Positions 6,801 to 61,167 of a stretch of 64,000 bases of DNA are shown one piece after another. Source of the stretch: a virus. The notes below the pieces were generated by a model, which was given only the letters and a program-made list of their open reading frames with translations, had not been told where the DNA came from and did not search any database. The stretch covers positions 47,967 through 111,966 of the IMG/VR virus record IMGVR_UViG_3300021963_000051. One strand, given 5' to 3'. Position 1 is the first letter of the stretch; every line of letters begins with the position of its first letter. The position numbers and the translations under genes are program-made.

Positions 6801-9800
6801 ACAGGTATAATTAGAAATGGCCCTTCTGATTATGCCGAAACTGGTAAACGTATTCCTATTAGTCTTGAAACAAATACTACGACGCAAGTTTCAAATGCCT
6901 ATAATTTATTACAAGCTAATAAAAATTTTATAGTTGCTGAAACTATTGCTTATATTAATTCAACATCAAATTACTTCGAATATAATAGAGAAAAATGTAG
7001 ACGTGATGTTGGAATTTTAGTAGAAAATATAAGTTATGATGCTACATTTGGTGGTAATGAAAAAGCTGTAGAAAGTGGACTTGCCTATTTCGATGGTGTA
7101 ATAAGCAAAATTTCCGGACAAGAAGTTCAAACTATTTCAGCTATAGATTATCTAAATTCTTTAGCTCAAAAAATAATAAGAAATCAAACCTGTACAAATC
7201 TTTTAGGATTTACTGCAACTCATGTACAAGTAATTAATACAGCATTAACTGGAGGAGCAGTAAGTTCAGATACTATAGATTATCTATTTGATATAGTTAC
7301 AACAATTATAGATAATGGTCCTACCGCAGCACCTACCATTTATAATAGCCCAGGACCGGATAGCGCATTTGTAAGTGCTCAAACTCTTATTCAATCTAAT
7401 AGAGCATTTATACAACAAGACACGATAAACTATGTTAATAATGTTTTATTACCTACTTTATATCCAGGATATTTTTCATACAGTGAAATAAAATGCCGTA
7501 GAGACACTGGATTAATTATTGATTCTATCGCTATTGATTTATTGTATCCAACTGCGGCAAGAAGTCAAAGTACATTTGCCGGATTACAATACTGGAATCA
7601 AGATGCATATGTTGGAGCTATTGCAGATCAATTAAATCCTACTGTAGATGCTATTAAGTACCTTAAAGATCTAGCAAGAAAAATTGTCTTATGTATTACA
7701 CCTAGTGATGATTTAGTTAATAGATATCAAACAGCCATTCCCCAGGTTACAAATTTAGAACCAGGAACAGATAACGAAGTAACTATTTTAAATGCTAGAT
7801 TTGATGAACTTATAGAAATAGTAAACGGAAATAAATCAGGTTGGACAAACAGAATTATTCCCAATGGAAAAACAAATAGTTTATTAAATTACAAAAATGC
7901 TTACAATCTATTAATAGCAAATAGAGCATACTTAGGTGCTGAAGTAAATGCCTATGTCCAGGCAACAAATTTTGGATTTACTTATGATACAGCCAAGTGT
8001 GCTAGAGATGTGGGATACCTCACAGAAGCTGTAGGCTTTGATATGCTTCACGGAGGAAATAGACAAACTGTTCAAAACGGTTTATATTATTACGGATTTA
8101 CTTCAACTACAAACATTTATAATGAAACTACTCAGACTGTTGCTGCCTTCAACACGTTAAGTTATATCATAAGTCAAGTTGTACTTAATACTCCTGTTAA
8201 TCGTAGACAGTTTAAAAAAGTTCAAACATTTTTTACAACTACTGCTACAATAAGCGAAGTTAATTTTATTAATACTACTGTTAATACAATTACAAGCATC
8301 ATTTTAAATGGACCAAGTGTAGCAGCATTACCAGCTGGTGTAGCAATGACAGCCAGTAATTCCGCAAGTGTAATCACAGCCTATGATTTAATTTATGCTA
8401 ATAAAGATTTTATTATCGAAGAAGTAATTAGTTTTATAGATCAAACTTATAATGCAGGTAGATTTAACTATGATGAAGCTAAATGTTTTAGAGATGTTGG
8501 GTTAATTTTAGACGCTGTTACTCAAGATGTAATTTTAGGGGGAAATAGTAAAAGTATTGAAGCAGGATTGGCATATTGGAGTGGAGGTTATAATTCTGTA
8601 GGAGATCAAATTACCACTACAACTATGGCAATTAATCACGCACGAGATATGGCGATCACAGTGGCTAAAAATCAAATATTTACAGCTACTACTGGTACAT
8701 TACTAACGCAAAACATTATTCCATTTTTTCAATATGGTGATGAATACGGTCCACAAGAAGCTATTCGTAGAAACTTTAATATAATTACTACTATTATAGA
8801 AAAAGGTCCTTTATATGCTCCGCCAACTTATGCTGGAGGAGGACTCTTTAGTCTTGTTGGTATTAACGGTGCAGATGTTAAGATTGCTCCTAAAGTTATT
8901 AGTGTTTCTACTATTACTACAGGCACATATAGGATCGGGCTTGATATACCTACTATAGGATTCGGTGTTAATTCTACTCTATACTTTGGAGATACACAGA
9001 TATTTCCTTTAAGAGATAAAGAAGTAGATGAGCAAAGTTTTGAATACGCAGGAAACACTTCAACATGGGCACTTAGAAAAATAGACCCAGTCGGTGGTAT
9101 GGGAGGCAGTTTAGTAGATGGTGGGGTGATAAGTGATAGATCTCCTATTCAATCATTTGTGTATGATGCCTTTACTCAACTTACACAGGGCGGCCGTGGC
9201 GTTCATATCATTAGAGATGGTTATGCTCAGTTAGTTTCGGTCTTTACTATTTTTGCTTCTAAGGGTGTAGAAGTTGAAAGTGGTGGTATAGCCAGTATTG
9301 TTAACAGTAACGCTAACTTCGGAGACATCTGTTTACAGGCTAAGGGCTTTGGCAAACGTAAATTTACAGGGCATATTTACAATCCTTCATTTAAGTCTTA
9401 TCCAGAAAGTCCAAATTTAATAGGAGGGGAATATTTAAATCAATATTATCCTAGCGGATTTTGGCCTAACAATGCGCAGGTTATGGTCTTTTTACCAGAT
9501 TTAGATGATCGTCCGCACATTTCTTTAGTAATGGAGGTTATTCCTCCGGAGACTGTACGAGATTATACAGGAGAACTTGTAGCACAGGTTAATGAACAAG
9601 GCTTTCCGGGATTTTTAAATGCTAGTCCTACTACAAGCACTTTGTCTACAGGAAGTATAACTATCTCTGGAATAGACACAACTAATATCTTTGTGGGTAA
9701 CCGTGTATATGCTAGAGATCAATTTGGAAGAAGCACAAGCTCGAATATAGATGTTAATGGTGACTGGATACCATATGTAGATGACGAGACATTTGTTACT

Positions 9801-57942: not shown

Positions 57943-58962
57943 TTAGAAACGATGACGAATACCAACACCTGATACACGAGTATCTGCGAAAGCTGTATTA
58001 GTTCTATTAACACCATCATTGGTATAATTAGTGTCACGTACAGCAGCATAAACATCAGTACGTTTACTTAGGCTGTGGCTTAGACCGACTGCCCAACTTG
58101 CGGTTTCTGCTGACTTATTACCTATAAAGGCGTGATCATGTTTAGCATAACTTACCATAGCTGTGTTACCTTTACCTAAAGGCATAGCAGCACCAAGGCT
58201 CCAACCTTTATCCTCTTTGGTTACCGCATCGCTGTGTTCAACTTTATCCCATTGAGCATAGACTTTGGCAACCTTAAGATCATAACTACCACCAAGAATT
58301 AGAGCAGTCATGCTTGGCTTACCAGCACCTTGTTCTACATCTTGCCATGTGGCTGTAAGACCAATTGGGCCACTAAAATACATAGCGCCCACACTCTTAC
58401 CTGCCTGTTTGGTTCCAGTGGCATCATCTACAACGCCTGCTGAATATACACCAGTAAGAGATAATCCACCTGCTTTGGTTTTTACTAGAACACTGTTGTT
58501 CCAACCAGAATCAACACCGCCTGCGGCTAGGTTGAAATTGGTAACACCAAAACGTTGTGTGAATGTTGGTGAAAATACTGAACTATCACCGAAACTGTTA
58601 AATGCCACAGTAGAAATAAAGTATGGAGTGGTTACACGACCGACTTGTACTTCGCCTACTTTACTGCCCAATGATACATAGGCATTGCGAGCATAGAAAG
58701 CATCACCGTTAAACCGTCCTGTTGAGGCTGTGTCTGGACGTAGAAATGTTTCTAGAACCACGCTGGCCTGATATGCGCCAACTTGCTCAACACTCTTGAT
58801 ACCGATGTGGCTGGTACTCATACCACCTGCTGATACTTGATTAGTTGAGGTCTTTCCTGATGTATGACCGAAGTAAGCATCTGCCAAACCGTAAAGACTG
58901 GTTTGAGCAGCAGCAGTGGTTGTAAGACCGGCCAATAAAACAGCCAATAAAAGTTTTTTCAT
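57943..58962 (-). CDS. Gram-negative general porin (betaproteobacterial type)
   Basis: Signal peptide, SLYGLAD start, RNAYVSL, LSKRTDVYA, C-terminal GIRHRF. Confidence 0.9.
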   Translation of the reverse strand: MKKLLLAVLLAGLTTTAAAQTSLYGLADAYFGHTSGKTSTNQVSAGGMSTSHIGIKSVEQVGAYQASVVLETFLRPDTASTGRFNGDAFYARNAYVSLGSKVGEVQVGRVTTPYFISTVAFNSFGDSSVFSPTFTQRFGVTNFNLAAGGVDSGWNNSVLVKTKAGGLSLTGVYSAGVVDDATGTKQAGKSVGAMYFSGPIGLTATWQDVEQGAGKPSMTALILGGSYDLKVAKVYAQWDKVEHSDAVTKEDKGWSLGAAMPLGKGNTAMVSYAKHDHAFIGNKSAETASWAVGLSHSLSKRTDVYAAVRDTNYTNDGVNRTNTAFADTRVSGVGIRHRF

Positions 58963-59995: not shown

Positions 59996-60640
59996 CTAAT
60001 GAGCCATTAGGCGATCTACAAAGCTCAATAACAGTTTATGATGTTGGTATTCATGCCAATATGGCTGAAGATAGGCCTTGTCATACCAATAACTGTCACT
60101 CTCAGGATGAGGGCCGATTAGACCAATTCGTCCCTGTATGATAGCAGCAGCATCACCATTTGAATACTTGGCAATTACTTCATAGGTTTTGCCATCACCT
60201 ACTAGACTACAGCCATCATAGAAAAACATGTCGTAATACTGTCCCTGCCAGTTAATTGTTGTAACTGTAGCGAAACTTCTTCTAATATCACTTTTCCTAC
60301 GCTTTATATACTGTAAAGTTTGTATATTGGGACAGATATTGAAATAGTGTGGACCTGCCCAGTAAGCACCCATACAGATGCCTAAATACCGTTTACGTTT
60401 GTCTACTTGATTTCTGATTATGTCTGCTCTTGAACCTATTATCCTATGCCAACTGTTGCTGTCTCCTATCCCACCTGGAAAGGCTATAAGGTCACATTTG
60501 TTAAATCTTGTGTCGGAAATTTCACTGTTACCAAAAAAGTCTATTTCATACTTAGGGCTGAGACTTTTCAATATGCCATGAGCACTTTGAACACTACATT
60601 CGGGATGATGAATGAATATTGCTACACGGGGTTTTTTCAC
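59996..60640 (-). CDS. BPL_N-like class I glutamine amidotransferase-fold protein
   Basis: FPGG, YLGICMGAY, GPHPE. Confidence 0.8.
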   Translation of the reverse strand: MKKPRVAIFIHHPECSVQSAHGILKSLSPKYEIDFFGNSEISDTRFNKCDLIAFPGGIGDSNSWHRIIGSRADIIRNQVDKRKRYLGICMGAYWAGPHYFNICPNIQTLQYIKRRKSDIRRSFATVTTINWQGQYYDMFFYDGCSLVGDGKTYEVIAKYSNGDAAAIIQGRIGLIGPHPESDSYWYDKAYLQPYWHEYQHHKLLLSFVDRLMAH

Positions 60641-60656
60641 ATGAATATTTATGAAA

Positions 60657-60676
60657 GCAGGGTCCTAAGACCCTGC
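60657..60676 (-). terminator. Terminator-like hairpin after tmRNA
   Basis: GCAGGGTC-TTAG-GACCCTGC followed by TTT on minus strand. Confidence 0.65.
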
Positions 60677-61105
60677 TGTTAGTTTCTGTTGCCAGGTATA
60701 ACTACCCCTGCATACCTGTTGATCAGGCTGCTAGAGCGTAAACTTCATCGTTTGCGTCTATTTGGTTTTGCTAGCTTTAGGAGCTTCGCCTTGCCTGTTG
60801 TCCATATCCGTACTCTTTGCCTCGTCGAAACCATGATCAGGCCCATCAACAGGAGACTGTAATTTCATGCTTTCTGGTACTGGTCCAATACCAACTAGCC
60901 TATCCCATTCTCTTTGAGTATACTTCAACATATAATCTCCTCTTGGTGGACCTGCCGGGATTCGAACCCGGGTCCGCGACATGTTTCCTTCAACTTCATA
61001 CAACAATACATGATCATTTTAGCAGACTCCATAGGGCGTGTGGGTCCTCTGCTGAGACTATGAGTCTTTCACTCATACAGGTTAAGCTATGCTTCCTTAC
61101 CCCTA
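60677..61105 (-). ncRNA. ssrA: tmRNA, circularly permuted (two-piece) gene
   Basis: T arm CCGGG-TTCGAAT-CCCGG and CAGGTCC-A-CCA end at 60944, upstream of the 5' end GGGCCTGATCATGGTTTCGAC (60844); 7-bp acceptor stem with G3-U70; tag ANDEVYALAA* at 60755-60723. Outer ends approximate. Confidence 0.92.
60758..60931 (-). CDS. 57-aa ORF starting in the tmRNA intervening segment
   Basis: AGAGGAG SD immediately after CCA; ATG 60931; MLKYTQREWDRLVGIGPVPE... Confidence 0.55.
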   Translation of the reverse strand: MLKYTQREWDRLVGIGPVPESMKLQSPVDGPDHGFDEAKSTDMDNRQGEAPKASKTK

Positions 61106-61115
61106 CTAGATAATT

Positions 61116-61167
61116 TATTTAATCATTGCTCTCTAGCAAGTATAATTATATACTACTAACTTGTCAA
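61116..61167 (-). promoter_or_regulatory. Tandem sigma70 and late promoters upstream of tmRNA
   Basis: TTGACA(61167-61162)-17 nt-TATACT(61144-61139) and TAAATA at 61121-61116. Confidence 0.75.

Follow-up and report, generated by a model that had tools for sequence, protein, structure and literature searches.

The window, by which we mean the whole stretch of 64,000 nucleotides analysed here, forms the last 64 kb of a virus record of 111,966 nt. CheckV places the completeness of this record at ~30%, which at such a length indicates a very large phage. Using Rfam models and ARAGORN, we located on the minus strand a permuted two-piece tmRNA gene of the beta type, which was found again when the whole record was searched (Table 1). 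The permuted order was confirmed in the sequence: upstream stand the T arm and the 3' acceptor strand with its CCA, downstream the 5' acceptor strand and the tag frame, and the intervening segment (hereafter the spacer) separates the two pieces. The acceptor stem comprises 7 bp, formed by GGGCCUG and the CAGGUCC that precedes ACCA, and includes the G3.U pair of alanine identity. RNase P is predicted to cut between positions 60845 and 60844, directly ahead of G1, and the tag encoded by the gene ends in a degron-like ALAA.

Just past the tmRNA terminator lies a minus-strand gene (59996-60640) for a protein of 214 aa with a biotin-protein-ligase N-terminal/class-I glutamine amidotransferase-like domain (E 2.8e-8), and ~1.7 kb downstream of the tmRNA a further minus-strand gene (57943-58962) encodes a Gram-negative porin of 339 residues (Pfam Porin_4, E 6.6e-37). 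The porin is an unusual cargo for a phage and hints at a Gram-negative host. Elsewhere in the window, at 2765-2836 on the plus strand, we found an Rfam 'freshwater-2' cis-regulatory motif (55.8 bits, cut-off 49.9) that ends in a Shine-Dalgarno (SD) sequence and an ATG at ~2834. No SmpB gene was found in the 112-kb record, an absence that says little at a completeness of ~30%.

Table 1. Features of the tmRNA locus and of the reading frame in its spacer, in the order of transcription.
Feature	Position	Strand	Remarks
Sigma-70-like promoter, TTGACA-17-TATACT	61139-61167	-	11/12 matches
Permuted tmRNA precursor, two-piece beta type	60652-61056	-	RF01850, 100.9 bits (cut-off 84)
RF04321 match	60723-61005	-	112.7 bits (cut-off 47)
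ARAGORN tmRNA* call	60632-61037	-	tag ANDEVYALAA
Acceptor piece: pairing segment, T arm, 3' acceptor strand CAGGUCC, discriminator A, CCA	60944-61005	-	sequence, Rfam, fold
CCA	60944-60946	-	read from sequence
Intervening segment (spacer), removed on maturation	60845-60943	-	99 nt; same length in four close relatives
5' strand of spacer-closing stem, with SD AGAGGAG (60943-60937) as part of it	60934-60943	-	stacks on acceptor stem
ORF, 57 codons and TAG	60758-60931	-	codons 1-29 in spacer, codons 30-57 in 5' part of mature tmRNA
Conserved family motif, codons 3-20	60872-60925	-	only part of the ORF under protein-level selection
3' strand of spacer-closing stem (anti-SD)	60849-60858	-	within ORF codons 25-28
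5' acceptor strand GGGCCUG	60838-60844	-	G1 = 60844; sequence, Rfam, fold
Resume codon GCA	60753-60755	-	AC separates it from the ORF stop
Tag frame, GCA to GCC (ANDEVYALAA), and TGA	60723-60755	-	TGA at 60725-60723; sequence, ARAGORN, Rfam
G+C-rich, terminator-like hairpin at 3' end of tmRNA gene	60656-60677	-	fold and sequence scan

The spacer carries the start of an open reading frame (ORF). Straight after the CCA, reading on the minus strand, stands the SD sequence AGAGGAG (60943-60937), followed by the five nucleotides ATTAT and by an ATG at 60931-60929. The 57 codons opened by this ATG run across the predicted RNase P site, with a codon boundary exactly at the cut (GAU/GGG), and end at a TAG (60760-60758) two nucleotides ahead of the resume codon. 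What the earlier note describes of this layout was recovered unchanged. The stop thus lies 87 nt into the mature RNA, and within the spacer itself the frame has no stop codon, a layout referred to below as stop-less. The frame is also open further upstream, where a TTG at 61006 (82 aa) and an in-frame ATG at 60982 were considered as starts and rejected: this stretch belongs to the T-arm region and its frame is not kept in the related tmRNA L244, so the SD-proximal ATG at 60931 was taken as the start. Besides the promoter listed in Table 1, no promoter-like site was found on the minus strand upstream of the tmRNA and the ORF, and none lies between that promoter and the ORF, so that the ORF would be readable only from the primary transcript of the tmRNA.

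The predicted protein matches the profile of the YTQREWDR family of small proteins (E 2e-16, 58 bits) and is, by profile search, the sole copy of this family in the record. The family shares an N-terminal motif of ~20 residues, K/Y-Y-T-Q-R-E-W-D-R-x-V-G-x-G-x-V-P-x-E, which in the window takes the form K-Y-T-Q-R-E-W-D-R-x-V-G-x-G-x-V-P-E, and in an alignment all of its invariant residues (Y, E, W, R, G, G and P) are present in the window ORF. Three public proteins are 70-84% identical to the ORF over all 57 residues. A search of viral contigs with the motif yielded 70 loci encoding small phage proteins of 32-92 residues; clustering at 90% identity divides the family into 1351 groups and at 50% leaves 304 representatives, all of 29-130 aa and all unnamed. 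A pattern scan of metagenomes gave at least six family loci, and a scan for the pattern from motif to tmRNA at least one. Among 185,579 prokaryotic species genomes, a single family locus was found, on a short MAG contig; by these counts, the family is almost confined to viruses.

Most of the family genes stand alone and use ordinary start and stop codons. What follows the motif varies freely, the tails ranging from acidic to Lys-rich across the family; in the window, both the end coded by the spacer and the tail that results from read-through lie between neutral and acidic. In L267, L286 and L298 (~1480-1641), the free-standing gene runs at its 3' end antisense into the tRNA-Pro of a tRNA array on the opposite strand. 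Pfam gave no family at E <=1 for ten family members, nor at E <=0.01 for the window protein, and PHROGs none for the protein or nine relatives, its two matches of unknown function having E values of 0.006 and 0.06. A protein atlas returned unnamed viral clusters only, at a score (0.79) below the chance level of the atlas, and neither the tmRNA region nor 20 kb of the window gave a nucleotide match in a collection of phage isolates. For a family member of 67 residues, the AlphaFold2 model, which is of low confidence (pLDDT 72, pTM 0.34), places a short helix on the motif and another helix at the C-terminus.

To describe selection on the ORF, we compared five DNA copies, namely the window, L243 (identical to L328), L317, L334 and L352; L243/L328 and L317 also supply the DNA of the protein forms P0003 and P0004. 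In all four relatives, the frame and its stop are laid out as in the window. Over codons 2-20, synonymous differences far exceed nonsynonymous ones (pS 0.52, pN 0.10), with 5, 4 and 12 variable columns at the first, second and third codon positions. Beyond the motif the values differ: codons 21-29, which cover the linker and the 3' strand of the closing stem, show a pS of 0.15 and a pN of 0.25, and codons 30-57, within the mature tmRNA, a pS of 0.19 and a pN of 0.10 with 3, 8 and 8 variable columns, the residue changes following paired, compensatory substitutions of the RNA in the pseudoknot region. The contrast between regions indicates that selection acts on the motif as protein and that the evolution of the read-through tail is that of an RNA. 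Among ten spacer-borne copies from different tmRNA lineages, the 8-codon core of the motif likewise gives a pS of 0.70 and a pN of 0.12, and its Arg codons swap between AGR and CGN. Both the SD and the ATG are kept in four of the five close copies. The exception is L243, which has ATA for ATG and a Leu-to-Glu change inside the motif together with an intact tmRNA, and the gene can therefore decay while the tmRNA persists.

These data bear on the simplest alternative, in which the ORF arose by chance or is a dead, untranslated relic. The frame open upstream through the T arm and the ATG lost in L243 would fit such an origin, as would Coxiella burnetii's 23S rRNA intervening sequence (IVS), whose ORF, S23p, appears not to be made according to a passage of PMC4990558. 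They are outweighed by the profile match at E 2e-16, by a pN/pS of ~0.2 for the motif in the window clade and by the SD and ATG retained in four of five close copies, so that chance or relic status appears close to refuted. On the evidence of profile and codon pattern, the spacer ORF is a genuine gene, beyond what chance would give.

Two features of the ORF described earlier did not hold up as properties of the gene. Codons 30-57, which read into the mature tmRNA, are without protein-level selection. As for the UAG at which the frame stops, 78 of 97 related phage tmRNAs carry a TAA or TAG in the corresponding place (positions -5 to -3 of the resume codon), so that the end of the ORF is a generic feature of such tmRNAs. 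Since the tail is unselected as protein and stand-alone members bear freely varying tails, read-through seems to be tolerated rather than built.

The central claim of the earlier note, that the tmRNA precursor doubles as an mRNA, is by comparison well supported: close relatives and other tmRNA lineages alike have kept the SD, the ATG and the N-terminal peptide, and the motif is under purifying selection. Very probably, the precursor is thus also a messenger, as far as sequence conservation can tell. A contig from a freshwater metatranscriptome, derived from a relative of ~90% identity, bridges G1 (60730-60898) and points weakly in the same direction, as carry-over of DNA is possible. Logan contigs from RNA libraries, which come from relatives and in their nature cannot show RNA ends, cover the coding piece, and none extends over 60906-60939.

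The SD is also a structural element. In the predicted fold of the precursor (z -3.7), which has the acceptor stem as well as the closing stem, both the minimum free energy and the centroid structure pair 60943-60934 with 60858-60849; among close relatives, the anti-SD strand shows changes from G-C to G.U. On average, the first 12 nt of a spacer form 10.8 pairs with its own 3' end and 8.3 with that of another spacer. Spacers without an ORF build the closing stem from other sequence, e.g. AAAGCAUAUU paired with AGUAUGCUUU, so the GGAG is unnecessary for the stem. An ATG ORF filling the spacer accompanies 12 of 13 SD-like spacer starts and 9 of 68 starts that are not SD-like (Fisher p 5e-8). As the SD is paired in the folded precursor, translation may be weak, and in the excised spacer it is predicted to be locked in a 9-bp stem against the spacer's own 3' end.

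This arrangement raises the question whether the passage of ribosomes through G1 and the first pseudoknot, rather than the protein, is what matters, by timing or guiding the folding and processing of the tmRNA. That the ORF spans exactly the distance from the spacer to the pre-resume stop, and that SD and anti-SD are built into the stem which creates the RNase P substrate, would suit such a role in cis. The strong selection on the motif at the amino-acid level and the existence of stand-alone paralogues nevertheless argue that the protein itself is selected, and the ~60% of related tmRNAs that have no spacer ORF evidently mature anyway. We therefore consider a role in cis very doubtful.

To see how the window spacer compares with others, we used 81 unique spacers collected by a scan that was blind to spacer content. 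Spacer-filling ORFs with an early SD and ATG were present in 13 of these, against 2.4 expected from shuffled sequences. Most of the spacer ORFs encode hydrophobic peptides of 21-34 residues and stop at a UGA one nucleotide before G1 (positions -4 to -2); these peptides occur in beta-type as well as alpha-like tmRNAs, and some alpha-like spacers hold two coupled cistrons. Others encode unrelated proteins of 40-83 residues. The spacer genes resemble that of the window in having the SD 1-3 nt after the CCA, the ATG 5-8 nt further on and a closing stem of SD and anti-SD. The window ORF differs from most of them in encoding a soluble motif protein of a different family and in being stop-less before G1.

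Several individual spacers deserve description. In L132, L134, L142, L158 and L197, an acidic leader of 18-25 codons has a stop that overlaps the ATG (ATGTTTAA) of a hydrophobic peptide, and in these alpha-like phage tmRNAs the hydrophobic second cistron ends at the UGA before G1. The same hydrophobic peptide makes up part or all of a single ORF in L129 and L139, an N-terminal extension replacing the leader in L129. One viral contig (L004) has two permuted tmRNA genes (65-513 and 7114-7471) on either side of a tRNA array, at a distance of 7 kb; their tags differ by two residues, and their spacers measure 146 nt with an ORF of 39 codons and 54 nt with none. The spacers of L014 and L015 start with a second T-arm-like sequence (GGGTTCGA..CCCACC), which resembles the remnant of a nested tRNA-like element.

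On a tree of 107 mature tmRNA sequences, the spacer content changes at least 23 times, which marks the spacer as an often-exchanged slot for small genes. It is hence conceivable that the spacer is merely a permissive, well-transcribed place in which a protein unrelated to the tmRNA is parked, the read-through frame being an accident. Besides the frequent exchange, this would account for the many unrelated ORFs in related spacers, both hydrophobic peptides of 21-29 residues and proteins of 40-83 residues, for the tail that evolves as RNA and for the stand-alone family copies, most of which have no tmRNA on their (short) contigs.

The distribution of the family with respect to tmRNA genes speaks for a closer relation. 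In the tmRNA tree, spacer-borne copies occur in at least three beta-type lineages which well-supported branches keep apart (the window clade, L244 and the L073 clade); they are present also in L247, where neither an SD nor an ATG follows the CCA, and in the alpha-like type (L254, L302, L305 and L456), which brings the family to at least four tmRNA lineages overall. The family genes outside spacers, where linked, lie 1-2 kb from a permuted tmRNA. Of 43 family loci, 13 have a tmRNA within 1.5 kb, from which a single nuclease-like gene typically separates them, and a permuted tmRNA scores above the cut-off in 12 of 35 records with stand-alone copies; these counts are not independent, as they include related phages with conserved gene order. 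For comparison, any tmRNA is reported in ~2.3% of phage genomes (PMC9004378). The marine phage contigs L268 and L265 (1570-2305) carry the family gene, followed by the gene of a PD-(D/E)XK nuclease-like protein of ~240 residues and then by a permuted tmRNA, and the order family gene, nuclease-like gene, tmRNA recurs in L272, L276, L294 and L303.

Recurrence in or beside phage tmRNA genes suggests that the role of the protein is probably tied to the tmRNA/tRNA module. An unrelated protein in a convenient slot would not be expected in or near tmRNA genes so far above a base rate of ~2%, nor in the spacers of both beta-type and alpha-like tmRNAs. We take the parked, unrelated gene for a serious possibility, though one that falls short of even odds.

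What RNase P would do to such a message is a separate matter. The earlier note had proposed that cleavage leaves a message without a stop codon, and as a structural inference this is supported by the window, where no stop precedes G1. Nor does one precede G1 in any spacer-borne family copy examined (window clade, L244, L073 clade, L247, L254 clade and L456), unlike most other spacer ORFs with their UGA. The frame is open to within 12 nt of the resume codon in five of these six groups, compared with ~22% of other tmRNAs in that frame. This invites the model of a sensor of trans-translation, which that note put forward as a possibility; in a fuller form of it, RNase P would make the message stop-less, its product would be tagged and destroyed as long as tmRNA is active and would accumulate when rescue falls short. 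Beyond the common layout, the linkage of the family to tmRNA genes agrees with this model, and there are proven precedents in ArfA of E. coli (PMC3989581) and BrfA of B. subtilis (PMC6881298), rescue factors whose messages are left stop-less by processing or termination.

Several observations weaken the sensor model, however. In stand-alone genes of the family, the frame ends at an ordinary stop codon; the sequence shows no resemblance to ArfA, and the tails are acidic, not basic. As a random frame has two chances in three of missing the UGA and any tail is tolerated, read-through comes near the neutral expectation, and the spacer groups may share one cassette together with its junction, for L244 and the window have both spacer ends alike on different tmRNA backbones. 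The SD of the excised spacer would be locked against its own 3' end, and L243 has lost the ATG and changed a motif Leu to Glu with its tmRNA intact. The sensor model is accordingly quite improbable in our view. An ArfA-like function was also set aside, given the lack of Pfam similarity and the acidic tail. A broader version would have the YTQREWDR proteins act on ribosome rescue or on the maturation of tmRNA or tRNA, with the spacer copies gated by tmRNA maturation in the manner of ArfA and BrfA, RNase P being the cutting enzyme; stable protein would then come only from nascent, uncut precursors, and cut messages would feed trans-translation. We regard this version as unlikely.

The reading that we prefer, at a probability of roughly 0.8, is that the spacer holds a gene of the YTQREWDR family which is read only off the tmRNA transcript, that the transcript is first translated and then matured, and that read-through into the mature tmRNA is tolerated. 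The SD and the ATG would emerge ~90 nt before G1 and before the pairing partner of the SD, so that ribosomes could load on the nascent chain. They would translate the 20-codon functional motif and the linker, continue across the RNase P site and through both the tRNA-like part's 5' strand and the first pseudoknot, and stop at the UAG ahead of the resume codon. With the ribosome gone, the acceptor stem and the closing stem stacked upon it could form, bury the SD and create the RNase P substrate, whereupon the RNA would mature into tmRNA. Were the cut to fall while a ribosome is still in the spacer, a stop-less message would result, and trans-translation would rescue the ribosome and tag the product. 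The earlier note had held that translation and maturation exclude each other. This stands in so far as the two cannot coincide on one molecule, for a ribosome that occupies codons 25-57 has to keep the acceptor stem open; for successive events it does not stand, as a precursor could be translated, then fold and then be cut. What we observed is the membership of the family, the selection on its motif, the layout, the stem and the recurrence in other tmRNA lineages; what we infer is when these steps occur, that translation competes with RNase P and what becomes of cut messages.

If spacers serve as messengers, a whole class of small phage proteins escapes any annotation pipeline in which tmRNA genes are masked. 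One RNA would then choose between being translated and becoming a rescue RNA, a compact instance, open to experiment, of a ribosome competing with RNase P. With the nested family, there would be a definite candidate for a phage factor that modulates trans-translation or the processing of tRNA-like RNAs. Moreover, the stop-less layout makes the long-standing idea of the ArfA type, that expression is tied to rescue capacity, testable in phage.

Circularly permuted tmRNA genes have been known since the work of Keiler, Shapiro & Williams 2000 and Sharkady & Williams 2004, as cited in a passage of PMC9004378. The gene in the window has the elements of the known ones: an acceptor piece with CCA, then a spacer and a coding piece, together with G3.U in an acceptor stem of 7 bp, a T arm and a tag that runs from GCA to ALAA. 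The papers on permuted tmRNAs consulted here treat the spacer as discarded RNA; the spacer of the window is a selected gene that ends inside the mature tmRNA. As contents of spacers, the newest tmRNA database paper gives a tRNA gene or a repeat element, and the words 'open reading' are absent from it (PMC11915505). Our searches of the full-text literature found no description of protein genes in tmRNA spacers. What is new here is the assignment of the nested gene to a large, nearly virus-only family, the link of the YTQREWDR family to tmRNA genes and the demonstration that the read-through tail evolves as RNA.

A single transcript that yields both a functional RNA and a small protein is familiar from dual-function RNAs such as SgrS/SgrT and RNAIII/hld and from co-transcripts of tRNA and mRNA. 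To our knowledge, the coding part is in none of these removed to make the functional RNA, nor does the ORF enter the body of the functional RNA.

Closer in layout are the ArfA and BrfA systems. They have in common with the window a small protein linked to ribosome rescue and a cut by RNA processing upstream of the stop which leads to control by trans-translation, as predicted here. They differ in that there is no sequence similarity and that the YTQREWDR family has stand-alone paralogues with normal stops. Here RNase P, not RNase III, is predicted to cut, at a tRNA-like structure, and the tail of the window protein is acidic, unlike the basic tails that enter the mRNA channel. The IVS of the Coxiella 23S rRNA is likewise a stem-closed spacer excised from the precursor of a stable RNA and holding an ORF; where S23p appears not to be made, purifying selection is clear on the motif of the window ORF, whose SD is canonical and whose family includes genes that stand alone.
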